64,000 bases of DNA from a virus. Taxonomy: Duplodnaviria; Heunggongvirae; Uroviricota; Caudoviricetes. This document shows, in pieces, positions 1,136 to 58,746 of the stretch (within the stretch, counting starts at the first letter, position 1; the number at the start of each line of letters is the position of its first letter). The stretch lies in the IMG/VR virus record IMGVR_UViG_2851955134_000009, one strand, 5' to 3'. The notes beneath the pieces are model-generated. The model made no database searches and was not told the origin of the DNA. It worked only from the letters and a program-made list of their open reading frames with translations. Position numbers and translations under genes: made by a program.

Positions 1136-2812
1136 CTAAGCAACATGTAGTTCATCGTTGGCGGAAGTGGCTGCTTTGCGCTCCTGCTCAATAGCTAGAG
1201 ACTCTCTATATTCTTTCGCCTCTGCAAACATTGTCCAGTGGGCGTTGATGTTCATGTCTTCAATAACTGATTTGATTTCTTTTAAATTTACGTTAAAAAA
1301 CTCTTTTCGTGAGTTAATTTTATTGACCTGCTTTTCGTTGAAAACTTTATGCAGATGGTTTTCTAATGATGGTGCATCATCACTATAAATCATCGCATGA
1401 ACATCGAACGAAAAAGGAACACTAGCATCTCCGAGTTCACGAACACGATCAAGTGGTTCAAGGCGGCGTGTCATTCCAATTTTATATACATCTTCGCCAA
1501 ATGAACCAATATTACTAATGATATAGACGTGGCCTGATCTGGTTTGTTGAGCCATAGAAATAGCTCGTTGATTTTTAGCTTCAGCTTCTTCATATTTTAA
1601 CTGTAGTTCAGCTATTTTTTGCTCTAAAGCTAAGCGTTGTTCTTCATTTGCAAGCATAAGTTCTTTCGTTGCTTTATTTATAGCTTGCTGAATAGCTTTT
1701 TCTTCTTTTTCAGCTTCTTTTATCGCTTTTTCATATTCTCTACGAGCTCTTTCCTCTTCACGAAGCTGTTCTTTAATCCTTCTTTGCTCTTCTTTTTCTT
1801 CGAGCATAATTTCATTAACTGCTACACCCCATTTTAGCTCGTTGAGTCTTGCCTGAAGATAGATGTCACTTATTTTTGCGGACCTAAAGGCAGAGCCATT
1901 GTAATTTACTAGTTGAAATGCATCTTTTATTTCTTGGGAAAGTTTTCCAAAATTGTTGTGTTTGACTTTTGATAAAATACTGTCAACTCTTCCATTGAAG
2001 GCATCCAAAACAAAGTTTATGGCAGTATTACGCCTGTTTTGCTCAACATAATCACACGAAGCAGCTTTATTAGTTTTTATTAATGATTTGGTTAACTCTC
2101 TGGCTTTTTGTAATTCCTTGCCTGCATCTGTAAATTCATAATTTTCTGCCAGCTCATCAAGTACACTACGGTTAGGGATGATCCATTCATCACCATAACC
2201 TTCAATTTTATTTTTCATTGATTTTGCAACTGCTTCATATTTTTCTGCAAACTCTTTAGCTTCATATGCTGAACCAGCAATCTCCTTTGCTCTTTCTTCT
2301 GCATCAGAAATAATTTTTACTGCATTGTCATTAGCATTTGAGATTAGCTCATTTGCTTTATTATTAGCATTATCAAGACGTTCTTTGGCTTTCAGGCGTG
2401 CATCGCGAGCGTCTTTGGTGATTGCTATAGCTTCGCTATTAGCGTTGCTTATTGTCATCTGAGCTTGATAATTTGCTTCGTTTACTGTTTTAGCCGCCTT
2501 AATTTGGGCTTCATCTATTTTTTGCTTGGCTATTGAGTCCGCATTTTTTATCTTATTCTCTGCATCCATTACTGCGCTGTGCAATTCTTCGTATTGCCAC
2601 AATGGTGCTGCTCGCCCTTCAAGCTCTGATAATTCTCGTACGGTCTGTGCTAGTTTTTCTTGATTTTCAATCAGTTGGTTAGAAAGGGCTATGTTGTTAG
2701 CTGTCAGGTTATCTATAGCCGCTTTGTGTTTTTTACTTTGTTTAAATAATATTACAGCTAGAACAGGGGCGAGAAATGCTAATAAGAGTATAACGATGGC
2801 AAATGAATTCAT
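1136..2812 (-). CDS. Membrane-anchored coiled-coil protein with C-terminal T5orf172/GIY-YIG-like domain (cargo)
   Basis: 558 aa; N-terminal TM helix, long K/E/A-rich coiled coil, C-terminal YIISNIGSFGEDVYKIGMTRR...HxxxF block; ATG with AAGGA RBS; visibly lower GC than flanks. Confidence 0.7.
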   Translation of the reverse strand: MNSFAIVILLLAFLAPVLAVILFKQSKKHKAAIDNLTANNIALSNQLIENQEKLAQTVRELSELEGRAAPLWQYEELHSAVMDAENKIKNADSIAKQKIDEAQIKAAKTVNEANYQAQMTISNANSEAIAITKDARDARLKAKERLDNANNKANELISNANDNAVKIISDAEERAKEIAGSAYEAKEFAEKYEAVAKSMKNKIEGYGDEWIIPNRSVLDELAENYEFTDAGKELQKARELTKSLIKTNKAASCDYVEQNRRNTAINFVLDAFNGRVDSILSKVKHNNFGKLSQEIKDAFQLVNYNGSAFRSAKISDIYLQARLNELKWGVAVNEIMLEEKEEQRRIKEQLREEERARREYEKAIKEAEKEEKAIQQAINKATKELMLANEEQRLALEQKIAELQLKYEEAEAKNQRAISMAQQTRSGHVYIISNIGSFGEDVYKIGMTRRLEPLDRVRELGDASVPFSFDVHAMIYSDDAPSLENHLHKVFNEKQVNKINSRKEFFNVNLKEIKSVIEDMNINAHWTMFAEAKEYRESLAIEQERKAATSANDELHVA

Positions 2813-10658: not shown

Positions 10659-11225
10659 GTGTTTAGTAAACAGGAGCAATCAGGTAATAGAGTAAGAAAT
10701 GGGAGTATTGTTGGAGGGAGTCAAACAAACCACATTACCAATATAGTTCGTAGTAGTAATCGAACTTTAGAGCGTTTGTACCAAAAGTTCTCTCAAGAAG
10801 ATGGAACTATGGGGGGGCAGGATTTTTGTGATAAGTTAAAGCACTATTTAGCCTCGGATACCAATCCAGATATAAGAGATTTAGCTACAAAGCTAACTGA
10901 TAGTGATAGAACTGAATTAATTTACTTTGCAACTGCTCTTAAAGAGCAAGCCCTCAAGGCGATAATGAAGTGCCAATCTTCCAAAACCGCACAAGAAATA
11001 TATGCGTTTATTCTTGATAAAATTCATGCTGATTTTATGCTCAAAATTACACCTCTTATTCAGAAGGATGAGGACCGAGTAATTGTTGATGAAAAAATTT
11101 CATTGGTATTAGAAAATATTAGTGAAATGTTGGGCGATAATTTGTTAAACTTATCCGAAAAGGATCTTTTGGGACTGTTGTATTTTTTAGGCGGAAATTG
11201 TTATATAAGGTGGGATAAATGTTAG
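10659..11225 (+). CDS. Hypothetical protein, candidate cassette component
   Basis: About 188 aa from GTG at 10659 (GTG at 10650 also possible); low GC; N-terminal NGSIVGGSQTN repeat; ends overlapping next start. Confidence 0.55.
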   Translation: MFSKQEQSGNRVRNGSIVGGSQTNHITNIVRSSNRTLERLYQKFSQEDGTMGGQDFCDKLKHYLASDTNPDIRDLATKLTDSDRTELIYFATALKEQALKAIMKCQSSKTAQEIYAFILDKIHADFMLKITPLIQKDEDRVIVDEKISLVLENISEMLGDNLLNLSEKDLLGLLYFLGGNCYIRWDKC

Positions 11226-11719
11226 TTTATCATCCAGCATATGATGCCTATCATTGTCTATTTAGAATGATGGCAATTATGGAAAATACAAATCGGCTTG
11301 AGATTGATAAGCTTAAAATATTGGATTTTTACATTTTATTTCCTGCGTTATTAAGTGAAGTGAAAATGCCGAGAGAATTTATTAAAATTAAAAAAACAGC
11401 AAAACTACATCATAATGAATATCATGATCCATTGAGTCCAAGGATTATTTTCAAGGAAATGCGTCAAATACAGGATGCAGCACTAAAATGTATGCTTGCG
11501 ACTGGTTATATTGATTCTGATGATTTCAGCAATGGTTTTGTCTCAAGAACAAATAAACAATTACCACTGAACCTAGCCTTAGAAATGGGCGTTTTTTTAG
11601 AGCGCAAAGAACCGTTTTCATCTTTCATTACACAAAAGATGGCTAAATTTGATCTGACTGGACCTGATGGATTGAAGGCTAGAACTAAACTTATGGAGTA
11701 TAGATATGACACTTATTAA
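11219..11719 (+). CDS. Hypothetical protein, candidate cassette component
   Basis: 166 aa; ATG with AAGGTGGG RBS; 7-nt overlap with upstream gene and 14-nt overlap with the ATPase gene. Confidence 0.6.
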   Translation: MLVYHPAYDAYHCLFRMMAIMENTNRLEIDKLKILDFYILFPALLSEVKMPREFIKIKKTAKLHHNEYHDPLSPRIIFKEMRQIQDAALKCMLATGYIDSDDFSNGFVSRTNKQLPLNLALEMGVFLERKEPFSSFITQKMAKFDLTGPDGLKARTKLMEYRYDTY

Positions 11720-13610
11720 GCCTACTCTTATTGTAACCAGATTAACAGTTTTTCAACACGGACATCGTGCATTTGATTGTGAATTCCACAAAGGTGTTAA
11801 CATTATTCGTGGGCGAAATAGTTCTGGTAAAACTACAATAATGGATATGCTGGCATTTTCATTGGGAGCTGAAAATATCAGGTGGAAACCACAGGCTTTG
11901 AAATGCACTAGAACAATCGTTGAAGTGCTTCTCAATAATGAGAAAGCATGCTTTAAACGAGAGATATCTATTGAGCAAATGCGACCTCTTTATATTTATT
12001 GGGGAGCGATGGATAAGGCTTTGAATGCTGGGGAACACGAATGGGATTTATACCCATTCAAGAGAACTGAGAGTAAAATTAGCTTCACCCAAGCTATTTT
12101 CAATGCATTATCAATGCCCTTGGCACAAGGTGCTGGTTCTTCTAATTTGACATTGCATCAGATTTTACGTGTCTTGTATGCAGATCAGCCGTCGTTACAT
12201 AGTCCAATTTTTCGATTTGACAGATTTGATAATGCTCTTACCCGTGAGACGGTAGGTGGATACTTATGTGGTGTTTATAATGATGAGTTGTACAATGCAC
12301 AACTTTCTTTAAGAGATGTTGAGACCGAACTAACAAAGAAAGTTACTGAATTAAAAAGTATCTTTACTGTATTAGGTAGATCTGGACAGGCTCCAGATTT
12401 ACAAGGTATTGATGAGAAAATAAAGCATCTAAATAAATTGAGAGCTATTGAGAATGTAAAACTAACAAATAGAGCTATTATAACTAATGAAGAAGGGGCT
12501 GATTCTGAAAAACGAATGGGTACTATCAGGGAGGAACTCAATGAAGCTAAAAGGAAATTATCTTCCCTAAAAGATAAAATCCAATCTTTGGATTTTGAAA
12601 TTTCAGATTCTGATATGTTTATATCAGAATTAAATGAGCGGCTAAAAAACTTAGAACAGTCTCGAGAAACGCGTGCTATATTTGATAGTATGAATTTTGA
12701 TTTTTGCCCTAGTTGTCTTTCCAAAATAGATAAGGCTCATAATGATCATGTTTGTCATCTATGTAAAGTGGAACAATTAGATGATAAAGCTGAAAATCAG
12801 TTATTAAGAATGAAAAATGAATTAACTCTTCAAATCAAAGAATCTCTTCAATTAATGGATAGAAGAAAAGAAGAGTTGGTAAGATTAAAGCGAGATGTTC
12901 CTTTAGCTGAGAGTGAATTAAAAAGGCTTGAACAGGATTATTTCAAAGAGTCACACTATTGGTCTTCACCGCAAGAGTTAGCTGTAGGTAAAATATATAG
13001 GGAAATTGGACGGCTTGATGAAGAAATAAAAAGAGCTTATGAAGATAAGAAGCTTATTGTTGTTATTAATGAACTTCAAGAGCGTCGCGATGAACTTCAG
13101 GCGGAAAAAAATAGACTTGATGATCTTATTGAACTTTATGAAGAAAAAGAGGAAGTTCTTAAAGATAAAATTTATGCTTCAGTGAGCTCAATAGCACAAG
13201 AGCTTTTACAAGAAGATTTGCCTTTGCAAAAAGAGTTTATGTCTCCTGAAAGTGTGGAGTTTAGTTTTACTGATAATAGCGTTTATGTGAATGGTAGTAA
13301 GAACTTTTCTGAAAGTTCAGCTGTAGTATTAAGGCATATATTCCATTTGGCACTACTTTCAGCAAGTATAGAGAACCACTCAATGCGACTTCCAAGATTT
13401 ATGATGTTAGATGGGATCGACGATGGTGGAATGGAAAAAGAACGGAGTCACAATTTACAGGAAATAATAATTGATGAGTGCTCACGTTATGAACATGATT
13501 ATCAGTTGATATTTGCAACATCTGAAATAAATCCCAAATACAGTGAGAGTGAATATATTGTTGGTGAGTATTATTCGCCAGATAATTATTCATTGAAAAT
13601 AATTGAGTAA
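11706..13610 (+). CDS. SMC/Rad50-like ABC ATPase with long coiled-coil insert and CxxC...CxxC hook-like motif
   Basis: 634 aa; Walker A GRNSSGKTT near N-terminus, about 300-aa K/E-rich coiled coil with CPSC-x10-CHLC, C-terminal Walker-B-like FMMLDGIDD; no TOPRIM or nuclease domain visible. Confidence 0.75.
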   Translation: MTLIKPTLIVTRLTVFQHGHRAFDCEFHKGVNIIRGRNSSGKTTIMDMLAFSLGAENIRWKPQALKCTRTIVEVLLNNEKACFKREISIEQMRPLYIYWGAMDKALNAGEHEWDLYPFKRTESKISFTQAIFNALSMPLAQGAGSSNLTLHQILRVLYADQPSLHSPIFRFDRFDNALTRETVGGYLCGVYNDELYNAQLSLRDVETELTKKVTELKSIFTVLGRSGQAPDLQGIDEKIKHLNKLRAIENVKLTNRAIITNEEGADSEKRMGTIREELNEAKRKLSSLKDKIQSLDFEISDSDMFISELNERLKNLEQSRETRAIFDSMNFDFCPSCLSKIDKAHNDHVCHLCKVEQLDDKAENQLLRMKNELTLQIKESLQLMDRRKEELVRLKRDVPLAESELKRLEQDYFKESHYWSSPQELAVGKIYREIGRLDEEIKRAYEDKKLIVVINELQERRDELQAEKNRLDDLIELYEEKEEVLKDKIYASVSSIAQELLQEDLPLQKEFMSPESVEFSFTDNSVYVNGSKNFSESSAVVLRHIFHLALLSASIENHSMRLPRFMMLDGIDDGGMEKERSHNLQEIIIDECSRYEHDYQLIFATSEINPKYSESEYIVGEYYSPDNYSLKIIE

Positions 13611-16467: not shown

Positions 16468-16609
16468 GGCACAAACCTACAGCCTTGAATGACGGCTTTC
16501 CCCGCCTGCGGTTTGTGTGGTTGTCGGTACAAATACCGCGCATTGTTTCACTGCCCCCATCACCGCAACCATAAGGCTCCAGTAAGTTTTTTCTAACGGA
16601 GCACGGCTC

Positions 16610-20154: not shown

Positions 20155-20650
20155 ACGCTGCCTTGTCGGGGCTGTGCTGGCTATTGCTGCCACGCTGCCG
20201 GGTTTTCAGCAGCTTCACACCTCCGTGGAGGGACTGAAACTGATCGCCGATTACGAAGGCTGTCGTCTGCAGCCGTATCAGTGCAGCGCGGGTGTCTGGA
20301 CCGACGGCATTGGTAATACATCGGGCGTCATTCCCGGCAAAACAATCACGGAACGACAGGCAGCAGAAGGGCTGATCTCCAACGTGCTGCGTGTGGAGCG
20401 GGCGCTGGAAAGGTGTGTGAAGCAACAGCCACCGCAGAAGGTGTATGACGCTACGGTGTCGTTTGCCTTCAACGTGGGGACGGGCAATGCCTGTAGTTCC
20501 ACGCTGGTGAAATTGCTCAATCAGCGGCGCTGGGCGGATGCGTGCCGACAGTTGCCGCGCTGGGTGTATGTAAAAGGTGTGTTTAATCAGGGGCTAGATA
20601 ACCGCCGAGCGCGGGAGATGGCCTGGTGCCTTAAAGGAGCTGGACTATGA
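20135..20650 (+). CDS. Lysozyme/endolysin with N-terminal signal-anchor (SAR-type)
   Basis: 171 aa; hydrophobic N-terminus (LVGAVLAIAATLPG) followed by a lysozyme-like E...D...T region (YEGCRLQPYQCSAGVWTDGIGNT). Confidence 0.75.
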   Translation: MNPSIVKRCLVGAVLAIAATLPGFQQLHTSVEGLKLIADYEGCRLQPYQCSAGVWTDGIGNTSGVIPGKTITERQAAEGLISNVLRVERALERCVKQQPPQKVYDATVSFAFNVGTGNACSSTLVKLLNQRRWADACRQLPRWVYVKGVFNQGLDNRRAREMAWCLKGAGL

Positions 20651-21075
20651 TACGTGCGCTGGCGGTAGTGGCGGCGCTGGCACTCGTTGCGCTGGGCTGG
20701 CAGTCGTGGCGGCTTAACAGCGCCAGCCATACCATCGAAACGCAGCGCGCGGCGCTGAAAAGTAAAGCGCACGAACTAACGAAGAAAAATAGCCAGCTGA
20801 TCAGTCTGTCCATTCTGGCTGAAACCAACAACCGGGAGCAGGCGCGGCTCTACGCCGAAGCAGAACAGACCAGCGCACAGCTGAGACAACGACAACGCCG
20901 GATCGAGGAACTGAAACGTGAGAACGAGGATTTACGCCACTGGGCTGATACTCCTTTGCCTGCTGACATTATCCGGCTGCGGGAACGTCCGGCACTCACC
21001 GGAGGTGCAGCTTACCGTCAGTGGTTGTCCGCGAGTGACGCCGTGTCGGCTGGAGCAGGCAGCACCGCGCACTAA
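20647..21075 (+). CDS. lysB: i-spanin (Rz-like, LysB)
   Basis: 142 aa, N-terminal TM then charged coiled coil; contains embedded lysC in +1 frame. Confidence 0.75.
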   Translation: MIRALAVVAALALVALGWQSWRLNSASHTIETQRAALKSKAHELTKKNSQLISLSILAETNNREQARLYAEAEQTSAQLRQRQRRIEELKRENEDLRHWADTPLPADIIRLRERPALTGGAAYRQWLSASDAVSAGAGSTAH

Positions 21076-21154
21076 CGGTGATCTGAATGCGTTGCTGGAT
21101 GAAACGGAGGCCGCCTGGGCGGTCTGTGCAGACAAAGTGGACATGATTATTTGA
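20918..21154 (+). CDS. lysC: o-spanin lipoprotein (Rz1-like, LysC), 3' end replaced by Mu-like insertion
   Basis: Lipobox LTLSGC; 78 aa; stop codon TGA is the first 3 nt of the inserted element; reconstructed empty site gives a 96-codon ORF. Confidence 0.7.
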   Translation: MRTRIYATGLILLCLLTLSGCGNVRHSPEVQLTVSGCPRVTPCRLEQAAPRTNGDLNALLDETEAAWAVCADKVDMII

Positions 21155-21200
21155 TGCGCCGCGCGATAAATGCGCTCTATCTTGTGCGATAAATGGCATC
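21152..21200. repeat. Right-end terminal repeat region (transposase binding sites)
   Basis: TGATGCGCCGCGCGATAAATGCG...GTGCGATAAATGG, two GATAAAT motifs 22 bp apart; resembles the Mu R-end as recalled. Confidence 0.7.
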
Positions 21201-21229: not shown

Positions 21230-21802
21230 TTACATTTCAGGTTCCGTTATGACAGTCCCAACAGGGTGATAGCGGTAGATCGTTGACAGTCCAATATCAT
21301 AGATAATTGCCAGCCGCTTTCTGTCATACCCTTTCTGGAGCAATCTTGCGATCTGCTCATGCTGCTCCTTCGTCAGTTTCGGGCGACGTCCTCCAACTCT
21401 CCCTTGTGCTCGCGCAGCAGCCAGTCCTGCCAGCGTGCGCTCAACTATCAGTTCACGCTCCATTTCTGCCAGTGCACCCATCATATGAAAAAAGAACCTT
21501 CCCATCGGAGTGCTGGTATCGATTGAATCCGTCAGACTGCGAAAATTGACACCTTTTGCGCGTAGCTCTTCTGTGAGAGCAATGAGGTGTTTCATTCTTC
21601 TACCCAACCGATCCAGCTTCCAGACCACCAATGTATCCCCTCTTTTAAGGCACTTTAAAGCGCGTTTCAGGCCTGGTCGTTCCGACTTGGTTCCGCTCAT
21701 TTTGTCCTCAAAAATCTGTTCACATCCTGCGCACATTAATGCATTGCGTTGCAAATCTGTGTTTTGGTCATTTGTTGACACACGTATGTAGCCAATCAGC
21801 AT
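21230..21802 (-). CDS. gin: Serine DNA invertase (Gin/Hin/Cin family)
   Basis: 190 aa from ATG at 21802 (MLIGYIRVSTNDQ...); resolvase catalytic N-terminus and C-terminal HTH; adjacent to invertible tail-fibre segment. Confidence 0.9.
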   Translation of the reverse strand: MLIGYIRVSTNDQNTDLQRNALMCAGCEQIFEDKMSGTKSERPGLKRALKCLKRGDTLVVWKLDRLGRRMKHLIALTEELRAKGVNFRSLTDSIDTSTPMGRFFFHMMGALAEMERELIVERTLAGLAAARAQGRVGGRRPKLTKEQHEQIARLLQKGYDRKRLAIIYDIGLSTIYRYHPVGTVITEPEM

Positions 21803-21915
21803 TAAAAATACTCCCTTTTGAGTGGTTAAAGTACTGAGATAATGTGAGGAGGATTTGAGAGATAAACGTTGGTTTGGGGGAAGGCTCTGCATTGCCTGTT
21901 GGTGTACCGGTTCCA

Positions 21916-21948
21916 TGGCCCACCGCCACACCGCCAGCAGGCTGGTTA
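21916..21948. repeat. Inverted repeat, left crossover site of invertible segment
   Basis: 33-bp TGGCCCACCGCCACACCGCCAGCAGGCTGGTTA, perfect inverted copy at 23394..23426. Confidence 0.8.
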
Positions 21949-22335
21949 CAGTGCAACGGAGCTACGTTCACCAAAGAACAATATCCTGTTCTGGCCAGAG
22001 TCTACCCGACCCTCCGTCTTCCCGATTTGCGCGGTGAGTTTATCCGTGGATGGGACGGTGGTCGCAAGGTTGATACCGGGCGTGCGCTACTTTCATTTCA
22101 GGAAGGGACTATCGTATCCGGTTTTGATGATAATGATACCGGAGATATCAGTTCGCTCGGCTCTACACAATACGGATTTGGTGACGCTTTAACCTCTAAT
22201 CAACTGGGGGTCATAAATGGCAAAAAGTGGATATTTGATGCATCCTCTAAAGGTGCACAAAGATATGACTGGTGGGCTTATGTATCAGCTCGCCCCCGCA
22301 ATATCGCATTTAACTATATCGTGAGGGCGGCGTGA
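21949..22335 (+). other. Silent alternative tail-fibre C-terminal cassette (Sv'-like)
   Basis: Shares the GEGSALPVGVPVPWPTATPPAGWL junction and the C-terminal NYIVRA with the expressed fibre; no own ATG (track start is TTG inside the repeat). Confidence 0.7.
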
Positions 22336-22341
22336 TACCGT

Positions 22342-22956
22342 TCAGCCGGCAAGCGCCAGTGGCGCTTCCGGCCAGCTGATTTCAGGTGCCTTGCTGATAT
22401 CCAGTGCGTTCAGCTCGTCGATATAATCCAGCACGGCGTTCAGTTTTGCCGTTTCTTCTGGTTTCAGACTGCGACCTGCCCGCAGTTTGAGGTTGATGAG
22501 GTCGATGGACTTCATCGCCTGATCCACCCGTTCCTGGCGTTGCAGTCTGGCAACCTCCAGCTCTGCGGCTCGCTGCCGTTCAGTATCGGTTACCCACGCC
22601 TCACCGTTCCAGGTATCCCATGGCGTGGCCGGCTGTTTTGTGGTGGTGTCCGCCGGGTAATCACCCGGCTGGGTAATCTGAACGGGAGTACCGTTCTCCG
22701 TGCTGTATACCGTCTCGCCGCGGTGATCAGGCACATGTTCCCACCCGTTCAGCGTGGCAGTCCGGCAAACCACGTAACCCGAAATTGCCTCCGGCGGTGC
22801 ATCGGCGCACGAATGTGCCGGAGTACCCACCCCAAGGGCGAGATACTCCACAGAGGATGAGGTGTATTCCCGGGTTTCCTCGTCATAGTGATATACAGTG
22901 ATATCGCCCGCTACAGTGGCGATACCGTTTTCATCCAGAACTGCAGTGTTACTCAT
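22342..22956 (-). CDS. Tail fibre assembly protein (Mu U-like chaperone)
   Basis: 204 aa, immediately downstream of the fibre gene, inside the invertible segment. Confidence 0.8.
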   Translation of the reverse strand: MSNTAVLDENGIATVAGDITVYHYDEETREYTSSSVEYLALGVGTPAHSCADAPPEAISGYVVCRTATLNGWEHVPDHRGETVYSTENGTPVQITQPGDYPADTTTKQPATPWDTWNGEAWVTDTERQRAAELEVARLQRQERVDQAMKSIDLINLKLRAGRSLKPEETAKLNAVLDYIDELNALDISKAPEISWPEAPLALAG

Positions 22957-24725
22957 TAAACTGCCCTCACAATGTAATTAAGTGCAATGCTACGGGGTCT
23001 GACAGTGATACCCTTCGCATACCCGCTTCTGATAGAGGTCAGAATAGTAGCCTGCATACCATTGTCTGACATTGCCACGACAGGATCGCTGAATGTTGTC
23101 CCGTCCGGCATTTTAAAGCTGCCCTCACGAAGGTCTGTAATGGAATCTTCATTGTTGAATCCCATGCCGACTATCCCCGAGGTTCCCGTAGTGTCCTGGT
23201 TATAATAATCCAGCATTGCTGTTCTTAACAGCGTTGCCCCTTGTGCGGACAGCAACTTACGTCCTGTATCAACTTTGCGCCCGTCGTCCCATCCACGGAT
23301 AAACTCACCGCGCAAATCGGGAAGACGGAGGGTCGGGTAGGCTCTGGCCAGAACAGGATATTGTTCTTTTGTAAAGGCGCGCCCGTCGCACTTTAACCAG
23401 CCTGCTGGCGGTGTGGCGGTGGGCCACGGAACAGGCACACCAACGGGTAGCGCCGAGCCTTCTCCTAAACCAAGGTAATTGAGGACATCTTTTATACTGC
23501 CCTTAGCGATAATAGCGCGACCAATAGCTGTAAGGGTTGCCAGCGCTGCGCGGTCTGCTCCGGTAAAATAAGGCAACCGATCTGCTGCAGTGGCAAGTCC
23601 TGCCAGAGCAGTGAGCGTGGCATCTGCCGGTTGTTTTCCGTTTGCCAGATCGTATGCAGCCTTGACCGCTTTCGGTGTGGCGGCCAGTATTTCAGACGTG
23701 CTGTTGATGGCACTGCTCAGTTGTACGGTGCCTTTTGCCGTCAGCGAGGCCGCAGGCACTCCCGTTATCTGACTCCACGGGTGAGTGTGGCTGGCAGGCG
23801 CCTTGCCGGCTGCCAGGTCGTATGCAGCCTTGACCGCTTTCGGTGTGGCGGCCAGCGTTTCAGACGTGCTGTTGATGGCACTGCTCAGTTGTACGATCCC
23901 TTTACGGGTCGTTGTTGCATCCTGGGCTGTGTATTTTCCCCGGGCCAGATCATACGCGATTTTCACAGCCTTCGGCGTGGCAGCCTCAGTTTCTGATTGA
24001 CTGTCCGTGGCGCTGCTCAGTTGTACGGTGCCTTTTGCCGTCAGTGAAGCCGCAGGCACTCCCGTTATCTGACTCCACGGGTGAGTGTGGCTGGCAGGCG
24101 CCTTGCCGGCTGCCAGGTCGTATGCAGCCTTGACCGCTTTCGGTGTGGCGGCCAGCGTTTCAGACGTGCTGTTGATGGCACTGCTCAGTTGTACGATCCC
24201 TTTACGGGTCGTTGTTGCATCCTGGGCTGTGTATTTTCCCCGGGCCAGATCATACGCGATTTTCACAGCCTTCGGCGTGGCAGCCTCAGTTTCTGATTGA
24301 CTGTCCGTGGCGCTGCTCAGTTGTACGGTGCCTTTTGCCGTCAGTGAAGCCGCAGGCACTCCCGTTATCTGACTCCACGGGTGAGTGTGGCTGGCAGGCG
24401 CCTTGCCGGCTGCCAGGTCGTATGCAGCCTTGACCGCTTTTGGTGTGGCGGCCAGCGTTTCAGAGGTGCTGTTGGTGGCACTGCTCAGTTGGGTGAACCC
24501 CTTAGCTGTCAGTGTCGCGTCCGGGTGGTTACGGGAACGTACGTGTTCAGCCAGTGACTGTGCGGCTTCCTCCGTTTTCTTCTTCAGCCATTTCGTCCTG
24601 TTTGCCAGTTGCCGGGGGGCTCGATTTGATATCCCGTCTGCACCACCCAGAACCGGATCTGATGTCTCCAGTTGATAGATATTTTCTTCCCACTTTTCTG
24701 TTTCATTCAGGTTTCCCATAATCAA
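22956..24725 (-). CDS. Tail fibre protein (Mu S-like) with repetitive shaft
   Basis: 589 aa; about 100-aa repeats (GTVQLSSA..S.SET.AATPKAVK.AYDLA); C-terminal 145 aa lies inside the invertible segment. Confidence 0.85.
   Translation of the reverse strand: MIMGNLNETEKWEENIYQLETSDPVLGGADGISNRAPRQLANRTKWLKKKTEEAAQSLAEHVRSRNHPDATLTAKGFTQLSSATNSTSETLAATPKAVKAAYDLAAGKAPASHTHPWSQITGVPAASLTAKGTVQLSSATDSQSETEAATPKAVKIAYDLARGKYTAQDATTTRKGIVQLSSAINSTSETLAATPKAVKAAYDLAAGKAPASHTHPWSQITGVPAASLTAKGTVQLSSATDSQSETEAATPKAVKIAYDLARGKYTAQDATTTRKGIVQLSSAINSTSETLAATPKAVKAAYDLAAGKAPASHTHPWSQITGVPAASLTAKGTVQLSSAINSTSEILAATPKAVKAAYDLANGKQPADATLTALAGLATAADRLPYFTGADRAALATLTAIGRAIIAKGSIKDVLNYLGLGEGSALPVGVPVPWPTATPPAGWLKCDGRAFTKEQYPVLARAYPTLRLPDLRGEFIRGWDDGRKVDTGRKLLSAQGATLLRTAMLDYYNQDTTGTSGIVGMGFNNEDSITDLREGSFKMPDGTTFSDPVVAMSDNGMQATILTSIRSGYAKGITVRPRSIALNYIVRAV
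23394..23426. repeat. Inverted repeat, right crossover site of invertible segment
   Basis: Reverse complement of 21916..21948, located inside the fibre gene at the constant/variable junction. Confidence 0.8.
23640..24480. repeat. 300-bp tandem repeats within the tail-fibre gene
   Basis: 23761..24060 and 24061..24360 are identical, with diverged partial copies on both sides. Confidence 0.85.
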
Positions 24726-29620: not shown

Positions 29621-32571
29621 CAGCGGTACTCCTTACGTTGTTTCTGAGCCAGCAGACGCTCCAGCATTTTTTCCAGCTCATGCAGACTCATATTCAGGGC
29701 ACCAGTCAGTCCTGCAGGCGCTGTGGTTTCCCTGCCATTGAGGAAAAACTGAGGATTAAAGCTGACCTGGATACCACCAGACGTTCCACCGCCGGTTGCA
29801 GCTGCACCACGGCCTGAATATCCGGCAGCCAGGATTTCAGGCGAGGGGATACGGGGAACATCCGGTGTCATCTCATTTGCCAGACGTTGACCTGGTAAAG
29901 TCGATGCCCGGGTGGAGATCGGAATAGCGGGCATGGAAGACAAACTATTGATTACGGATCCGATCGCATTTTTAGCAGACGACATAAACCCGTTGATATC
30001 GGGCAACGGCATACTGAAGCGAACACCTGAAGTGTTATCCCGTATTTCTGGCCCCTGAATGCTCACGGGCATTCTGGGGAGCAGTTCACTGGCCATTCGC
30101 TGCCCGGCCAGAGCTGCAATCGGAGTGCTCCGCTGCAGGCCAATGGCGGCCCCCTGCGCGATATTGTCACCAAAGCCCATAAACACGCGGCTCGGCGAAT
30201 GAATACCCAGCTTTTCACTGAACCAGCCACTGATGCTGTCACCCATTCCGGTTACACTGGATTTGAGCGACTCCCATTTGTTTTTGATACCGTTAATCAG
30301 ACCGTCGACAAGATGGCCACCGAAGTCGGTGAACTTTGCCGGCAGATCAACACCAAGATATTTCAGCGCAGCTGCAAAGGCTTTATAGAGCAGACCTGCC
30401 GGCGACCAGTTAATCAGCAGCTTACCAGTTCCCGCGATACCGCCGTTAAAGGCCTCCTGAATGTCAGACCAGCACTGTTTAAACCAGCTACTGATGCTGT
30501 CACCCATTCCGGTTACACTGGATTTGAGCGACCCCCATTTGTTTTTGATACCGTTAATCAGACCGTCGACAAGATGGCCACCGAAGTCGGTGAACTTTGC
30601 CGGCAGAGCAACGCCGAAATATTTCAGCGCAGCCGCAAAGGCTTTATAGAGCAGCCCTGCCGGCGACCAGTTAATCAGCAGCTTACCAGTTCCCGCGATA
30701 CCGCCGTTAAAGGCTTCCTGAATGTCAGCCCAGCGCTGTTTAAACCAGCCACTGACTGTCCCCCAGTTGCGGTAGATAAGGTAAGCTGCTGCCGCGACAG
30801 CGGTGATAACGAGACCGATGGGATTCATCATCAGCGCTCGCCCAATCCAGAGAACGGCACGTGCAGCGCTCATAAAACCGCGAACGAGGCTGCCCGCCAG
30901 AACTTTGCTGAGTTTCAGTCCTCCGCTGGTCAGTCGGCTAAATCCAGTGACAAGCCAGCGTAATTTGCCACCTTCTCCTAGTGCGGTAGTCAGTCGATGC
31001 CAGTTGGTCCGGAGTAAAACAGCAGTTTTCCAGACGTTCACAAAGGGGGAAATAAGGAGATTCAGCCCCAGTTTGAGACCAACAGTCGCTATCTTAATCG
31101 CAAGGAGCGCACTGATGAGCTTAAAAGCCCCACTGACAAATTGCGGGTGAGTCGCCACCCAGTGTTTTGCCCCCTGAATGAGTGGGATCAGCTCCTGAGT
31201 CAGAGAAATAAAAGAGGGGGCGAGCTGATCGCCCAGCGTAATAGCCAGATCGCGACTGCTGACCATAAGCGCTTTAGTGGCTTCAAGGGGAGATTTCAGC
31301 CGCTGATCGTAAGCACTGGCAAGCAAATCGTTATCCGCAGCCCTGAGAGCACCGGCACGGATCTCGCGATATCTGTCCATGTTGGCCAGCATCGGGCGGA
31401 TAAATGCCATGACCTGCATATCCGCGAACATATCGCCCAGACCAAAGTTTTTCGCCAGAGCCTGAAGTGCCTCATCTCTTGCCGTATCATTCTTTATTTT
31501 CATGGCGGATTTGAAGCCGGCCAGCGCTTCGGGGCTTTTGGCATTGAGGTAACGTTCTATAACACTCAACATCCCTTCAATCGGAGAGATCCCCGCAGCC
31601 TTATAACTCGCAACAGAACCCTGCAAATCAATACCCAGATCAGCAAACTGTTTCTGAGTATCGCGGGCAAAAATTTTGGTAAGAAAGTTTTTAAAATTAT
31701 TGGCTGCTTCGTCGGTGGAGCCCGCACCGATTTTTGCTATCTGGAGACTGGCCCCGATTTCAGCAACAGCCTCTTTTCCACTGGCAATACCCGCCATCAT
31801 TGGGGCCAGGGACTGCATCCACTTGACCTGATCCGGGATTTCAAATGACCCCTGGTCACCGGCATAAGCCATAATATTCTGGACGGCACTAAAATCTCTG
31901 GCCGCACCTTTCAGGGAGTTTTGCCAGACTGCGGCCACTTTTGCCCAGTCCTGAGATGACGTGCGTGTTGCCGTTGCCGCGCGGGCAATATCCGGCATCA
32001 GAAAACCGATATCTGACAAGTTATCAATATTGTCGCTGATGAGCGAACCCACCGCCTCCTGCAGTTCATCCTGATACTGATTGTATTTTTGCGCCCAGCC
32101 TTTTATCTGTCCGGCAAGTGCATCCCGCGTTTTATTGTCATATTTTGCGGTGATCGACATATCAATCATTTTGTCCTGAAAAGACATGGACTGCTGAACG
32201 GCAGGGGAAACCGTATGATAAACAGTCTGTGCCATGCCATACGCTTCAATCCCCTGACCATACAGCGCCATGCGGTTAGCTTTCAGCGCATCACTGGTGG
32301 CTGATGCCGCTGACAGACGGCGCTGCTGGCGCTCAATTTGCTCCATGGTGCGGCTTACCCGCAGCAGCTCGCTGTTGAGATGCTGCATCCGGGAAGAGCC
32401 CAGTTGACCATAACGTTCTGTTGCACGGGTTAAAGCGTTCTGACGTTCCTGCAGGCGGCGTGAGGTATCGCTCAGGGAATCAAGCGCACGGCGGGTACCG
32501 CTCATTGCAGAACGGAATGTGCTGCCAATCATCCCGCCGATAACAACGCCGACTGAAAACTGTCCCGACAT
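29620..32571 (-). CDS. Tail tape measure protein
   Basis: 983 aa, helical and Gly/Ala-rich, internal 87-aa tandem duplication. Confidence 0.85.
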   Translation of the reverse strand: MSGQFSVGVVIGGMIGSTFRSAMSGTRRALDSLSDTSRRLQERQNALTRATERYGQLGSSRMQHLNSELLRVSRTMEQIERQQRRLSAASATSDALKANRMALYGQGIEAYGMAQTVYHTVSPAVQQSMSFQDKMIDMSITAKYDNKTRDALAGQIKGWAQKYNQYQDELQEAVGSLISDNIDNLSDIGFLMPDIARAATATRTSSQDWAKVAAVWQNSLKGAARDFSAVQNIMAYAGDQGSFEIPDQVKWMQSLAPMMAGIASGKEAVAEIGASLQIAKIGAGSTDEAANNFKNFLTKIFARDTQKQFADLGIDLQGSVASYKAAGISPIEGMLSVIERYLNAKSPEALAGFKSAMKIKNDTARDEALQALAKNFGLGDMFADMQVMAFIRPMLANMDRYREIRAGALRAADNDLLASAYDQRLKSPLEATKALMVSSRDLAITLGDQLAPSFISLTQELIPLIQGAKHWVATHPQFVSGAFKLISALLAIKIATVGLKLGLNLLISPFVNVWKTAVLLRTNWHRLTTALGEGGKLRWLVTGFSRLTSGGLKLSKVLAGSLVRGFMSAARAVLWIGRALMMNPIGLVITAVAAAAYLIYRNWGTVSGWFKQRWADIQEAFNGGIAGTGKLLINWSPAGLLYKAFAAALKYFGVALPAKFTDFGGHLVDGLINGIKNKWGSLKSSVTGMGDSISSWFKQCWSDIQEAFNGGIAGTGKLLINWSPAGLLYKAFAAALKYLGVDLPAKFTDFGGHLVDGLINGIKNKWESLKSSVTGMGDSISGWFSEKLGIHSPSRVFMGFGDNIAQGAAIGLQRSTPIAALAGQRMASELLPRMPVSIQGPEIRDNTSGVRFSMPLPDINGFMSSAKNAIGSVINSLSSMPAIPISTRASTLPGQRLANEMTPDVPRIPSPEILAAGYSGRGAAATGGGTSGGIQVSFNPQFFLNGRETTAPAGLTGALNMSLHELEKMLERLLAQKQRKEYR

Positions 32572-48588: not shown

Positions 48589-48936
48589 TCAGCCTGCGAT
48601 TTTTCCTGGTTTTGGCTGAGTATAGAAGCGCCCAACCTCAAGAAATGAGCGTCGTTGCTCCGGAGTCATTTCATCAAATGCGTCCATTAATTTCTGTTTG
48701 TCTGGTGACATTTTTGGGATAGCGTTGGTAGTTGCATCCCCTCTCTGTCCCGTAACAACGTAAAGCACGTCAAGCCCCAAAGTAGCCCAAATTGCCAAAG
48801 CATCTGCTCCGGGAGCGGATTCATCCTTTTCCCACCGCAATTGGCTTTTATAGGATGCCCCCACCAATTCAGCAAACTCAGACTGACTAAATCCTAGGCG
48901 GTTTCGTTCTTCTTTTAATCGTGAACCAAGTGACAT
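48589..48936 (-). CDS. Repressor-like HTH protein (XRE/Cro-C1 type)
   Basis: 115 aa; HTH (RLGFSQSEFAELVGASYKSQLRWE); divergent from Ner-like early operon. Confidence 0.7.
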   Translation of the reverse strand: MSLGSRLKEERNRLGFSQSEFAELVGASYKSQLRWEKDESAPGADALAIWATLGLDVLYVVTGQRGDATTNAIPKMSPDKQKLMDAFDEMTPEQRRSFLEVGRFYTQPKPGKIAG

Positions 48937-50840: not shown

Positions 50841-52610
50841 ATGACCCCGGCACTGACTGAAAAACTTGTTGAAACAGCCCGCGCGGCACGTAATGCGGGG
50901 CATGGTAAACGCGGTGCAATATACGACGCTGCCTGTGCTGAACTTGGCATGTCCCGCGCCACTCTGCTGCGCAGGCTGAAGGAGGTCTCTGTGACTGATA
51001 AACGCAAAAAACGCGCCGATGCCGGACGCAGCACCCTGACCCGCGACGAAGCCGCGCTGATATCTGCCACACTACGTGAGGCCACCCGCAAGAACGGTAA
51101 GCGTCTCTATTCCATCGCGGATGCAGTGGAAACCCTGCGGGCTAACGGCTTTATCTCCGCAGGCAGAACAGATGAAACCACCGGTGAGTTTTTCCCGTTG
51201 TCCGAAGATGCCATCAGTCGTGCCCTGCGTAACTATGGCCTGCACCCGGAACAACTGGATGCCCCTGCACCGCATACCGAAGTGGCCAGTCTGCACCCCA
51301 ATCATGTCTGGCAGATTGACGCCTCACTCTGCACGCTTTACTACCTGAGCAATGGACATAAAGGGCTGCAGGTGATGGACAGCGCGAAATTCTACAAAAA
51401 CAAGCCCGCTAACCTTGCCCGTATCGCCAGTGACCGCGTGTGGAGTTACGAGATTACCGACCATGCCAGCGGCTGGATTTACGTTGAGTATGTGACGGGT
51501 GCGGAATCCGGTGAGAACCTGTGTTCTGTGCTTATCAACGCCATGCAGGAGCGTGGCGGCGCAGACGTGCTGCACGGCGTGCCAAAAATACTCTATCTCG
51601 ACCCCGGCTCGGCAAACACCGCGGGTATGACGAAAAACATGTGCCGCTCACTGGGCATCGACCTGATAGCGCACAAGCCGCATAACGCCCGCGCCACCGG
51701 ACAGGTGGAAAAGGCGCGTGACATTATCGAACGCAAGCTGGAGCCGGGTCTGAAGTTCCGGCCGGTTCACAGTCTGGAAGAACTCAACGCGCTGGCCGCG
51801 AAATGGCGCAGCCACTTTAACGCCACGGCTGTTCACAGCCGCCACGGTAAAACCCGCACGGATATCTGGCTGAAGATTACTGCTGAGCAGCTGAAAAAAG
51901 CGCCTTCCGTTGAGGTATGTCGTGAACTGGCTGTGGCGGCACCAGAACTCCGCAAAGTCACGCCAAAACTTCGTGTCTCGTTCCGGGGCACTGAATTTGA
52001 CGTATCAACGGTACCGGGCGTACTGGTCGGTGAAAAACTGATGATTACCCGTAACCCGTGGCGCAGCGATGTGGCACAGGTGGTTCTGACCGGTGAGGAC
52101 GGCCACGAGACGTTCTTCCTGGTCGAAGAGGTCAGAAAGAACGAGTTTGGCTTTGCTGAAGGCGCGGCGGTATTTGGCGAAAGTTACAAAGCCCTGCCGG
52201 AAACCCCGGCGCAGATGGCGGCAAAAGAAACCGAAGCGCTGGTCACCGGTACAGACAACGCCGCAGATGCAGCTGCCGCACGCAAGGCGAAGGCGCTGCC
52301 GTTCGGCGGGCGGCTTGACCCGTATAAACATATTGATGACGCCACACTTCCGGCCTGTATACCGAAGCGTGGTCAGGCCTCTGACGTACGCGGACCGCGC
52401 ACTGAACAGCGTCCCATGACTCATGTGGAGGCCGCGAAAGCCCTGCGCGGGAAGTTTAGCGCAAACGGCCTGACCTGGACGCCGGAACATTACCGCCAGT
52501 TAACAGCACAGTACCCGGACGGCGTACCGGAAGCCGCACTGGATGAAGTCATGGCCACGCTGACCACGCCGGCCCGCAGCAGCGTTATCAGCATTGTTAA
52601 CGGCAACTGA
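50841..52610 (+). CDS. DDE transposase (retroviral-integrase-type core), transposable-phage A-like
   Basis: 589 aa; N-terminal HTH; core with HVWQIDAS, YLDPGSANT and downstream E; followed by AAA+ partner. Confidence 0.8.
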   Translation: MTPALTEKLVETARAARNAGHGKRGAIYDAACAELGMSRATLLRRLKEVSVTDKRKKRADAGRSTLTRDEAALISATLREATRKNGKRLYSIADAVETLRANGFISAGRTDETTGEFFPLSEDAISRALRNYGLHPEQLDAPAPHTEVASLHPNHVWQIDASLCTLYYLSNGHKGLQVMDSAKFYKNKPANLARIASDRVWSYEITDHASGWIYVEYVTGAESGENLCSVLINAMQERGGADVLHGVPKILYLDPGSANTAGMTKNMCRSLGIDLIAHKPHNARATGQVEKARDIIERKLEPGLKFRPVHSLEELNALAAKWRSHFNATAVHSRHGKTRTDIWLKITAEQLKKAPSVEVCRELAVAAPELRKVTPKLRVSFRGTEFDVSTVPGVLVGEKLMITRNPWRSDVAQVVLTGEDGHETFFLVEEVRKNEFGFAEGAAVFGESYKALPETPAQMAAKETEALVTGTDNAADAAAARKAKALPFGGRLDPYKHIDDATLPACIPKRGQASDVRGPRTEQRPMTHVEAAKALRGKFSANGLTWTPEHYRQLTAQYPDGVPEAALDEVMATLTTPARSSVISIVNGN

Positions 52611-52620
52611 GGAGGGAAAC

Positions 52621-53787
52621 ATGCTGGTACTGAAGCAGCAACTGAAAGAGGCCCGTATTCCACAGGCGGTGGCGGCGAGAGCTGTCGATGTTTCTGAGGC
52701 CACGCTGGCCCAGATTGTGAATCATAACGCGTGGCCCCGCACCAGCCCCGGAGAAGTGCGCCGGCGTCTTGCGTCCTGGCTGGAAAGTCAGGGGATTGAT
52801 ACAACGAAGAGTTTTGATGCTGTACAGGGCGCGGCCACGCCCCGTACAGCGGGTACCACAGATAAAACGAGCCTCAGTGAGGAAGAGAATATGTTACTCA
52901 AAAAACAGGTGTTATTTCCAGCAACCAAAAAAGCGTTTGGTCTTTTCCGTGACCCGTTCGCCGATGAAGCCATGCAGGGTTCTGATGATGTGTTCACCAC
53001 CCCGGACATTCGCTACGTGCGTGAGGCGCTGTACCAGACAGCCCGTCATGGTGGGTTTATGGCCGTCATCGGTGAGTCCGGTGCGGGTAAATCCACGCTG
53101 CGCCGCGACCTGACTGAACGTATTAACCGCGAGAATGCGCCGGTAATTGTTATCGAGCCATACATCATCGCTATGGAAGACAACGATGTGAAAGGGAAAA
53201 CCCTGAAGGCAGCAGCTATTGCCGAAGCCATTATCAGTACCATCGCACCACTGGAAAGCATCAGACGCAGTCAGGACGCCCGCTTTCGCCAGTTGCATCG
53301 CGTCCTGAAAGACAGCAGCCAGGCGGGGTTCAGCCACGTTCTGGTGATTGAGGAGGCCCACAGTCTGCCCATTCCGACACTGAAACACCTCAAACGCTTT
53401 TTTGAGCTGGAGTCCGGTTTCAAAAAACTGCTGTCCATCGTGCTGATTGGCCAGCCGGAACTGGCGACAAAACTGTCTGAACGCAATATGGAAGTCCGTG
53501 AAGTCGTTCAGCGCTGTGAGGTGGTCGAACTTCTGCCTCTGGACAATAACCTTGAAGAATTTCTGACGTTCAAACTGCAACGGGCCGGTAAACAACTGAC
53601 GGACATTATGGACGCCAGCGCAGTGGATGCCATACGTGCCCGCCTGAGCAATCCGGGAAGTCATCGTAAAAATATGGTCAGCCTGCTGTATCCGCTGGCC
53701 GTCAGTAACCTGGTAATAGCCGCCATGAATCTGGCCGCTGAAATCGGGGTTCCACAGGTCAACGCTGACGTTGTCAAAGGAGTTTAA
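52621..53787 (+). CDS. AAA+ ATPase transposition helper (Mu B-like)
   Basis: 388 aa; N-terminal HTH; Walker A GESGAGKST; Walker B VLVIEEAH. Confidence 0.8.
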   Translation: MLVLKQQLKEARIPQAVAARAVDVSEATLAQIVNHNAWPRTSPGEVRRRLASWLESQGIDTTKSFDAVQGAATPRTAGTTDKTSLSEEENMLLKKQVLFPATKKAFGLFRDPFADEAMQGSDDVFTTPDIRYVREALYQTARHGGFMAVIGESGAGKSTLRRDLTERINRENAPVIVIEPYIIAMEDNDVKGKTLKAAAIAEAIISTIAPLESIRRSQDARFRQLHRVLKDSSQAGFSHVLVIEEAHSLPIPTLKHLKRFFELESGFKKLLSIVLIGQPELATKLSERNMEVREVVQRCEVVELLPLDNNLEEFLTFKLQRAGKQLTDIMDASAVDAIRARLSNPGSHRKNMVSLLYPLAVSNLVIAAMNLAAEIGVPQVNADVVKGV

Positions 53788-54086: not shown

Positions 54087-54617
54087 ATGGCAAAAAGTAC
54101 AAAAGGGGCAAAACGTATCAAGGCCGCAGCGGCACTCTGGGTACCAGGGACACGCGAAGAGGTCATTGAGGGAATCAGACTACTCGGTGACGCACAACGT
54201 GAACTGGTCAGGGCTGAAACAGAAATGAATGACGCCATTGGCGATATCACCGCACGTTATGCCCCGCTCACCGAGAGCCTGAAAAAACGCATGGCCGAAC
54301 TGCAGTCCGGTATCCAGACATGGTGTGAGGCGCACCGTGATGAACTGACCGGCAACGGGAAGGTGAAGTTCGCTAACCTTACCACCGGCGAGGTGCAGTG
54401 GCGAAACCGTCCGCCATCAGTCAGTATCCGTGGGGCGGATAATGTTATTGAATTACTGAGACGTCTGGGGCTTGAGCGCTTTATTCGTGTAAAAGAGGAA
54501 ATAAATAAAGACGCTATCCTGAATGAAAAAGAGGCCGTGAAAAATATTCCCGGTATTTCCATTAAAAGCGACATTGAGGATTTTTCAATAATTCCTTTTG
54601 AGCAGGATGTGCAGTAA
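54087..54617 (+). CDS. gam: Gam-like host-nuclease inhibitor
   Basis: 176 aa; strong similarity to Mu Gam as recalled (RIKAAAA...TEMNDAI...WCEANRDELT...SIRG...FIR.K.EINK.AIL...SDIEDFSIIPFEQ). Confidence 0.85.
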   Translation: MAKSTKGAKRIKAAAALWVPGTREEVIEGIRLLGDAQRELVRAETEMNDAIGDITARYAPLTESLKKRMAELQSGIQTWCEAHRDELTGNGKVKFANLTTGEVQWRNRPPSVSIRGADNVIELLRRLGLERFIRVKEEINKDAILNEKEAVKNIPGISIKSDIEDFSIIPFEQDVQ

Positions 54618-56826: not shown

Positions 56827-57268
56827 ACAACGTCTTATCCAGCTTATCCATATTGCCCGTAATGAACTGGGTATGGATGAAGACACCTACCGCCAGATGT
56901 TACAGGGGCTGACCGGTAAAGCCTCAACCAAAGGAATGGATACCACACAACTAAACTGCGTGCTGGAATCCATGAAAAAGAAAGGCTTTCGCGTTAAACC
57001 AGCCAGAAAAGCCAGCTCCGGTTTACCGCTGGATAACCATCCGCAGTCCAGGAAAATTCGTGCGCTATGGCTTGAAATGGCTGCTGCCGGCATTGTTCGT
57101 GACCGTTCAGAAAATGCATTAGCGAGGTGGATCAAGCGGGAAACGGGCATCAGCGCCCTGCGCTGGCTCAGTACTGAACAGGCAGGCAGTGTTATTGAGA
57201 AACTGAAGAAGTGGCAGCACAGAGCTGCGGGAGTAAAACATGAGCGACCTGAATCAGTTTCGAAGTAA
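56816..57268 (+). CDS. gemA: GemA-like regulatory protein (Mu gp16 family)
   Basis: 150 aa; MTKQRLIQLIHIARNELGMDEDTYRQML...; AGGAG RBS. Confidence 0.65.
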   Translation: MMTKQRLIQLIHIARNELGMDEDTYRQMLQGLTGKASTKGMDTTQLNCVLESMKKKGFRVKPARKASSGLPLDNHPQSRKIRALWLEMAAAGIVRDRSENALARWIKRETGISALRWLSTEQAGSVIEKLKKWQHRAAGVKHERPESVSK

Positions 57269-57638
57269 AGGGCCGGAACTCCTGGTGGAACTGGCACAGC
57301 ATACCTCTGAGACCGTTCGCGAGATTATTGATATTGAGCCCGCAATTGCCGACCAGATTGGTCAGGCCGTCGCGAACCGCATGATGCAGGTCTGGGGCGG
57401 GCAAAACGTTTATTTCCCGATGGGCATGGTATGGAAGGTCAGTCAGCGCGACCGGGAAATCTTCAGGGAGTTTAACGGACGTAACCACCATGAACTGGCC
57501 CGCAAATTTGGTGTTTCGCTTCAGTGGGTCTACAGCGTGGTTAAGCGGGTAAGAAAAGAAGAACTGGATCGGATGCAGGGCAGGTTGTTTGATGAAGATC
57601 TGCCAGAGGAGACGAAAGACGTTAACAAATCCAGATAA
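57240..57638 (+). CDS. mor: Mor-like middle-operon transcriptional activator
   Basis: 132 aa; C-terminal HTH (ELARKFGVSLQWVYSVVKR); position after gemA as in Mu. Confidence 0.65.
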   Translation: MSDLNQFRSKGPELLVELAQHTSETVREIIDIEPAIADQIGQAVANRMMQVWGGQNVYFPMGMVWKVSQRDREIFREFNGRNHHELARKFGVSLQWVYSVVKRVRKEELDRMQGRLFDEDLPEETKDVNKSR

Positions 57639-57682
57639 TTCCTGCTTGTTAAAGTCCTTTCAAAAATCTCCTTATTGTATAA

Positions 57683-57714
57683 AAGCACGGTAGACCCCTT
57701 ACCGTGCTTTTTTT
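57683..57714 (+). terminator. Rho-independent terminator ending the early operon
   Basis: Perfect 10-bp stem AAGCACGGTA/TACCGTGCTT, 7-nt loop, followed by T7. Confidence 0.8.
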
Positions 57715-57752
57715 ATGCTCTCTCTTTAGTATTCAGGATGCAGGGAGAAAAT

Positions 57753-58689: not shown

Positions 58690-58746
58690 CACTCCAATTC
58701 GTTATTTATCTCACGGATCCCCCTTCATTTATCTCATGTCTGATCA
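58690..58746. repeat. Left-end terminal repeat region (transposase binding sites)
   Basis: Reverse complement reads TGATCAGACATGAGATAAATGA...GTGAGATAAATAA, same motif spacing as the right end. Confidence 0.7.

Follow-up and report, generated by a model that had tools for sequence, protein, structure and literature searches.

Transposable phages that carry a Tn552-related transposase form an established group (Summer et al., 2004, and Toussaint and Van Gijsegem, 2017, as cited in PMC5977238). TG...CA termini are a hallmark of the BcepMu group (PMC2628397); the Burkholderia phages BcepMu and phiE255 (genus Bcepmuvirus) bear 23-bp imperfect repeats at their ends, and in this group packaging proceeds from a left-end pac site, a few hundred to 2,000 bp of flanking DNA being packaged as well (PMC2920897). 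Related Bcepmuvirus prophages of gut Pseudomonadota are reported to be inducible (PMC12629997). Prophages of this type have also been noted in E. coli ST131, and phages inserted in prophage regions have already been reported. The target-site duplication generated by Mu measures 5 bp, and that of Tn552 6–7 bp. The other system of relevance here is P2, in which monomeric circles are packaged from cos to cos and the head has room for ~33 kb. Its annotation (NC_001895, Peduoviridae; 33,593 bp) gives a pO operon composed of O N M L X Y K lysA lysB R S, with a terminator after S. The genes V W J I H G are placed under a promoter of their own, pV, whose activator site is centred ~55 nt upstream of V; R and S are essential tail-completion genes, while lysB and lysC are non-essential.

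The stretch of DNA analysed here (64,000 nucleotides, referred to as the window) was 100% identical to positions 4163205–4227204 of the chromosome of E. coli AR_0085 (NZ_CP029741.1). Two prophages are nested at this locus. The outer one, which is P2/186-like, lies between rcdA (ending at 4163100 of the chromosome) and ybjL (starting at 4236374), so that the composite measures at most 73.3 kb. Its left arm was 98% identical to Escherichia phage vB_EcoM-813R9 over 80% of the length of the arm. The early genes are arranged in the order int, a PD-Lambda-1-like gene, CI, CII, Fil, Dam, a replication endonuclease gene and an ABC-3C trio. The late genes follow as portal/terminase (Q, P), O N M L X, holin, lysozyme, lysB and lysC and, after an interruption of 37.6 kb, R S V W J I H G; the invertase gene, FI to D, and ogr are located outside the window. 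This late-gene order is like that of P2, as are the overlapping lysB/lysC spanin genes followed by R and S, and the Ogr-type late promoter sites pO and pV. Unlike P2, the outer prophage has a 186-type CI/CII/Fil immunity region, hotspot cargo of the PD-Lambda-1 and ABC-3C types where P2 has old/tin, and the 37.6-kb insertion inside its late region.

Both cargo positions are occupied by recognisable modules. Between int and CI, a gene at 1136–2812 (minus strand) specifies a 558-aa DUF4041/T5orf172 protein that matched PD-Lambda-1 (padloc, E 2e-120), an anti-phage defence system carried here at a classic P2 hotspot. A three-gene ABC-3C/Lamassu-like module (10659–13610, plus strand) is flanked by the replication and portal genes, at the position of old/tin in P2, and specifies a CTD9 effector-domain protein, a middle component MC5 and an LmuB-like ABC ATPase.

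The original prediction had placed a Mu-like prophage inside the 3′-end of the lysC gene of this P2-like prophage, with the late operon cut after lysC and resuming with R at 58772, 37.6 kb away. The nesting was borne out by TG...CA ends and by duplications at five insertion sites (see below), and the coordinates were confirmed. At the left junction, the lysC frame, which opens with a GTG at 20918, reads ...ATG ATT ATT TGA, and the TGA that closes it (21152–21154) consists of the three bases with which the inserted element begins, as had been proposed; the element starts at 21152 with TGATGCGCCGCGCGATAAATGCG. At the right junction, the GTG start codon of R lies at 58772, with an AGGAG at 58760–58764. 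The element occupies positions 21152–58746 (37,595 bp), has the termini 5′-TGATGCG...CTGATCA-3′, and is bordered on the left (21146–21151) and on the right (58747–58752) by perfectly matching copies of ATTATT. The extra DNA therefore amounts to 37,601 bp, namely the 37,595-bp element plus a 6-bp target-site duplication, and the insertion point is 57 nt before the end of lysC.

When position 21151 was joined to position 58753, the flanks rendered, as expected from the original prediction, an in-frame lysC of 96 codons that overlaps R, the corresponding 96-aa protein ending in MIIACQERNSEQTTIPAPRPQ followed by a stop codon. The reconstructed site was aligned with an uninterrupted prophage present in E. 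coli PK8568; over a region of ~6.4 kb, 6,151 bp aligned at 97.85% identity with 0 gaps, and ATTATT was present only once in the PK8568 prophage. The lysC–R junction was uninterrupted in the P2-like contig OM835953 as well. The two points on which the original prediction had staked its reading were thus examined: the 37.6-kb block does have transposable-phage ends, and its junctions rebuild a contiguous P2-like sequence. Another way of drawing the limits of the element, namely a duplication of 5 bp with one extra terminal base, was rejected. It is at odds with four other insertions of the same element, in which the same TG...CA termini are accompanied by different 6-bp repeats, so that the termini are fixed as TG...CA and the length of the duplication as 6 bp; a 5-bp join, moreover, frameshifts the reconstructed lysC.

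A search of 5,426 complete E. coli genomes found the AR_0085 junction in one of them, AR_0085, and in none of the others. This rarity is what might be expected if the arrangement were an assembly artefact, that is, a chimeric join of two separate prophages. However, the exact termini of the element abut perfect 6-bp repeats of a sequence that the empty site contains only once, the P2 arms are colinear, with no gaps, when the element is taken out, and the transposase gene was found as a single copy when searched for in AR_0085, which has no second copy of the element and hence no repeat to collapse. We consider an artefact of this kind extremely improbable. The uniqueness of the junction, together with the perfect duplication and the absence of further lesions in either phage, points to a recent insertion event.

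The family to which the inserted element belongs was established from its transposase, its transposition ATPase, its gene order, its DNA similarity and its ends, all of which place it in the BcepMu group. The transposase gene, tnpA (50841–52610, plus strand), specifies a 589-aa DDE protein of the Tn552/BcepMu type in which the only Pfam domain detected was rve, the Mu-transposase domains being absent. TnpA was 68% identical, over 98% of the protein (tblastn), to BcepMu gp09, annotated as a 'Tn552/IS1604 rve transposase', and 98.5% identical to the transposase of Escherichia phage PhiKM (PQ738613), which is classified as Bcepmuvirus. A search for solved structures with the transposase rendered no informative relative. 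The adjacent tnpB gene (52621–53787, plus strand) specifies an AAA+ (ExeA-like) transposition ATPase (AAA_22, 4e-20) that was 59% identical to BcepMu gp08 (E 3e-167), which is annotated as a 'DNA transposition protein'. At the DNA level, the element covered 98.7% of other E. coli copies at 92–99% identity; it was colinear with BcepMu over 26% of its length at 65–70% identity, and only 2.9% of it aligned to Mu, corresponding to gin, gam and two short patches.

The orientation of the element is inverted relative to the BcepMu map (minus strand), its 'right' end, with the tail-fibre and invertase genes, lying at 21152 and its 'left' end, with the Mor gene, at 58746. As in BcepMu, transcription of the early operon runs toward the left end, Mor being its outermost gene, a candidate repressor gene is divergent from it, and the lysis, Mu-like head and P2-like tail genes are found beyond the repressor gene on the other strand. 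As in BcepMu and phiE255, TG...CA termini are combined with 23-bp repeats at each end. The right-end repeats (21152–21197, plus strand) consist of two 23-bp units, each of which contains GCGATAAATG (21163–21172 and 21186–21195), and are presumed to be transposase binding sites; those of the left end (58701–58746, minus strand) consist of two 23-bp units containing GAGATAAATG and GAGATAAATA (58726–58735 and 58703–58712, respectively, on the minus strand). The units at both ends share the core G(C/A)GATAAAT. The right end showed 17 matches out of 23 to the right end of BcepMu, and the left end 15 out of 23 to the left end of BcepMu. Like the BcepMu group, the element has inserted at many unrelated sites with short target-site duplications. 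It differs from BcepMu at the right end, which bears a Gin-type invertase gene and an invertible fibre module in place of the BcepMu acyltransferase gene, and at the left end, where a 210-aa gene is additionally present outside Mor; the AR_0085 copy differs further in being located inside another prophage.

The original prediction had likened the right end of the element to that of Mu, and this likeness was reproduced: the terminal 23-mer matched the right end of Mu at 18 of 23 positions, which is the best 23-mer on either strand of the Mu genome. This match, and the presence of gin, gam and mor homologues, could be taken to indicate a true Mu/D108/SfMu-type phage (Muvirus) inserted by MuA and MuB with a 5-bp duplication. 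The element and Mu are indeed both transposable temperate myoviruses that have gam, mor/C and gin homologues and TG...CA ends. Nevertheless, BLASTP revealed no similarity between the rve-only transposase and MuA (best E 0.2), so little of the DNA aligns to Mu, and the early region is inverted, its genes being read outward toward the end of the element, while those of Mu (c-ner-A-B) are read inward from the left end; moreover, the duplication measured 6 bp at five of five sites. Transposase, duplication length, gene order and DNA comparison together rule out Mu proper, an assignment to which we give hardly any probability. The ends of the element match the architecture of BcepMu at least as well, and the likeness to the right end of Mu is a resemblance between the ends of different transposase families. 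By its sequence, the element is a Bcepmuvirus and not Mu, so that the 'Mu-like' of the original prediction holds in a broad sense and fails if Mu itself is meant.

The assignment of the termini relied on four more copies of the element, which were compared in other E. coli genomes at unrelated loci. The targets were tnaB in LH10-b-1, a LysR-regulator gene adjoining inaA in Ec1117, rstB in ABU 83972, and the gpJ/tail-assembly region of a lambdoid prophage in 2014EL-1343-2. The duplicated sequences were GTTATC, GCTAGT, ATTTGT and ACCGGC in these four insertions, against ATTATT in AR_0085, and the termini were identical in all five independent insertions. Overall, the element was present in ~630–740 of the 5,426 complete E. 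coli genomes (~12%), at many loci and almost always in the chromosome, and hundreds of the genomes that have it showed varied flanking genes. The common 'Mu-like' prophage of E. coli is of the BcepMu type, with 6-bp duplications, and is not Mu.

Of ~40 insertions inspected, three were in phage genes, with no sign of a bias beyond random targeting; one copy adjoins a lambda exonuclease gene. The insertion in 2014EL-1343-2 (NZ_CP024228.1, 1407300–1446500, duplication ACCGGC) represents a second case of nesting, and that copy of the element has broken tape-measure and fibre genes. Other nested prophages involve lambdoid hosts or site-specific integration, which sets them apart from the AR_0085 case, with its target in the lysC gene of a P2-like prophage; a lysC target in a P2-like prophage was found only in AR_0085 in the collection searched. 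Random insertion of a transposable phage, prophages included, is to be expected and opens no new question. Given the established phage group, the prophage insertions already reported and the other copy found within the tail genes of a lambdoid prophage, the AR_0085 composite is a further instance of a known phenomenon, and its biology is ordinary. It does show, in clean and fully resolved form, how transposition of one temperate phage can disable another. The composite also bears on prophage annotation, since tools may call it a single 73-kb prophage or split it wrongly.

RefSeq placed no pseudogene flags inside the inner element. A gene specifying a Gin/Cin-type serine DNA invertase lies close to the right end (21230–21802, minus strand; RefSeq; Pfam Resolvase 8e-51, plus HTH_7; 74% nucleotide identity to Mu gin), adjoined by a tail-fibre tip gene in the opposite orientation (21874–22335, plus strand; RefSeq). 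An HTH protein divergent from the early operon (48589–48936, minus strand) gave HTH_3 and HTH_31 matches just under the cutoffs and occupies the position of BcepMu gp17; it is a candidate for the immunity repressor. The early operon further includes genes for a Gam host-nuclease inhibitor (54087–54617, plus strand; Pfam Phage_Mu_Gam 1e-40) and a Mor/C-family late-transcription activator (57240–57638, plus strand; Pfam Mor 1e-43). The terminator scan detected a strong terminator-like hairpin 3′ of mor, at 57681–57711.

Two open reading frames lie outside mor at the left end, one of 210 codons (57753–58385, plus strand) and one of 53 codons (58389–58550, minus strand). Neither had a Pfam match, the 210-aa protein had no match in PADLOC, and both were conserved in other E. 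coli copies of the element; they look like a moron. Repeats were evident in two structural genes. The tail-fibre gene at 22956–24725 (minus strand) contains tandem repeats of ~300 bp at 23644–24525, seen as self-offset HSPs of 300 and 600 bp, and the fibre gene of the LH10-b-1 copy is larger by 600 nt; most of the variation in size between copies is explained by this difference. The tape-measure gene of the AR_0085 element has a smaller internal repeat of ~260 bp (30221–30773).

The truncated lysC (20918–21154, plus strand) specifies an o-spanin of 78 aa, with a lipobox (LSGC) whose Cys is residue 21, in place of the 96 aa of the restored protein; the loss of 18 residues that had been foreseen is thus confirmed. 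The displaced 3′-end of the gene, composed of the 18 codons for ACQERNSEQTTIPAPRPQ plus a TAA, was found at 58753–58809 (plus strand). The lysC gene of P2 also has 96 codons; the restored LysC aligned to that of P2 with no gaps and with 37 identities in 96 positions, and the restored gene overlaps R by 38 nt, the same overlap as in P2 (8455–8492). The features common to both proteins are the lipobox Cys, TNGDL, and a C-terminal Cys-Gln...Asn...Gln-Thr...Pro-Ala pattern. The positions of the latter, including Cys80, all fall in the segment removed by the truncation. The i-spanin gene lysB (20647–21075, plus strand) is full length; its 142-aa product was identical to PK8568 LysB at 137 of 143 positions and can be aligned to P2 LysB. 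RefSeq nevertheless calls the AR_0085 lysB an incomplete pseudogene (20647–20994 in window coordinates), although the open reading frame is full length; the truncation of lysC probably gave rise to this partial label during annotation.

The tail-completion genes R (58772–59203) and S (59196–59642), both on the plus strand, are intact according to RefSeq and can be aligned to R and S of P2, but they now lie 37.6 kb from pO. The original prediction had extended this separation from the late promoter to all the genes from R to G. To locate the promoters, the Ogr-type activator pattern TGT-N12-ACA was considered. A candidate site was found in the P–O intergenic region at 16514–16531, 87.5 nt upstream of the start of O; the corresponding pO/pP site of P2 is annotated ~95 nt upstream of O, and the assignment of the outer-prophage site to the divergent pP/pO promoters is by position only. 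A second site, TGTATCAGCACTGATACA, is a perfect TGT-N12-ACA at 59647–59664 and is centred 55.5 nt upstream of the start of V (59711), which is the spacing seen at pV of P2. Since the pattern was not enriched window-wide (16 occurrences found, 16.2 expected), such matches are informative only through their position upstream of O and V. The pO operon of P2 ends after S and the pV site has been retained here, so that only R and S would be cut off from pO, V to G probably keeping pV. The original prediction therefore stands for R and S and has to be given up for V to G.

Whether R and S might still be transcribed depends on the left end of the inner element. The 210-aa gene at 57753–58385 (plus strand), like the early operon, is oriented toward R and S, and between 58385 and 58772 the scan detected no plus-strand terminator-like site, so that weak read-through from this end may allow some expression of R and S. 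A scan for plus-strand promoter-like sites in 57600–59800 found none, and near both junctions the promoter and terminator scans rendered nothing above background except the hairpin after mor. If R and S were transcribed from the inner phage, and if this phage were removed or tolerated at packaging, the outer phage would still be functional; an intact ribosome-binding site and start codon for R, and the dispensability of LysC in P2, would fit such a situation. Against it are the strong hairpin at 57681–57711 between mor and the 210-aa gene, the lack of a plus-strand promoter-like site just mentioned, a DNA unit of ~73 kb that is more than twice the 33.6 kb of P2, and the excision that removal of the inner phage would require, which is not known to occur precisely at useful frequency in transposable phages such as Mu. 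A functional outer phage is accordingly a very unlikely outcome. A broader proposal, namely that insertions of the Bcepmuvirus type constitute a recurrent and perhaps non-random route by which prophages of E. coli become disabled and immobilised, with R and S possibly depending on outward transcription from the inner phage, fares only slightly better, and we regard it as improbable.

We are highly confident in the explanation that a BcepMu-type phage transposed into the lysC gene of a resident P2/186-like prophage, with the probable loss of the outer phage. The events would have been as follows. A BcepMu-type temperate phage would have lysogenised AR_0085 or a recent ancestor, TnpA (the DDE transposase) and the AAA+ protein TnpB inserting the phage genome into the chromosome at a cut with a 6-bp stagger. 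The target would by chance have been inside the P2/186-like prophage located between rcdA and ybjL, in lysC, and repair of the staggered cut would have given rise to the ATTATT duplication. The LysC o-spanin would thereby have lost its last 18 residues, including the conserved Cys, and the essential R and S genes would have been uncoupled from the Ogr-activated pO. The cos-to-cos unit would have grown from ~35.6 kb to ~73 kb, which would exceed the capacity of a P2-size head. Transposable prophages such as Mu are not known to excise precisely at useful frequency, so that the damage would be effectively permanent.

The uncoupling of R and S from pO, the length of ~73 kb, which should not be packageable in a head sized like that of P2 for ~33 kb, and the absence of precise excision lead us to conclude that the outer phage is very probably dead as an autonomous virus. 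The original prediction had described it as probably lysis- or tail-defective. The tail part of this statement is supported, essential genes having been moved away from pO, while the lysis part is weak, since lysB and lysC are non-essential in P2; the tail defect would thus be the graver of the two, and truncation of the spanin might by itself have little phenotype. As the element contains no RefSeq pseudogenes, the inner phage looks intact and should be inducible, replicating by transposition. It would be expected to package its DNA by the headful from the left-end pac site, adjacent R/S DNA of the P2-like prophage being included as the variable flank. On induction, AR_0085 would probably release only the inner Bcepmuvirus.

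Both nested phages have a Gin/Cin-type invertase gene together with tail-fibre/assembly genes in opposite orientations, at 21230–22956 in the inner phage and at 4227111–4228849 of NZ_CP029741.1, outside the window, in the outer one. A query covering the invertase gene matched two places in AR_0085. The two related inversion systems lie ~44 kb apart and could in principle cross-react.

A related pair of phages was found under the name 'Klebsiella phage KP12', which comprises OM835953.1 and OM835952.1 and was deposited with a Vequintavirinae taxonomy. One of the contigs is P2-like and 96% identical to the outer prophage; the other is BcepMu-like, with a transposase 92% identical to that of the inner one. 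KP12 was rejected as a case of the same nesting, since the o-spanin/R junction of its P2-like contig is unbroken; the two contigs look like co-purified or host-derived temperate phages in a mislabelled record.
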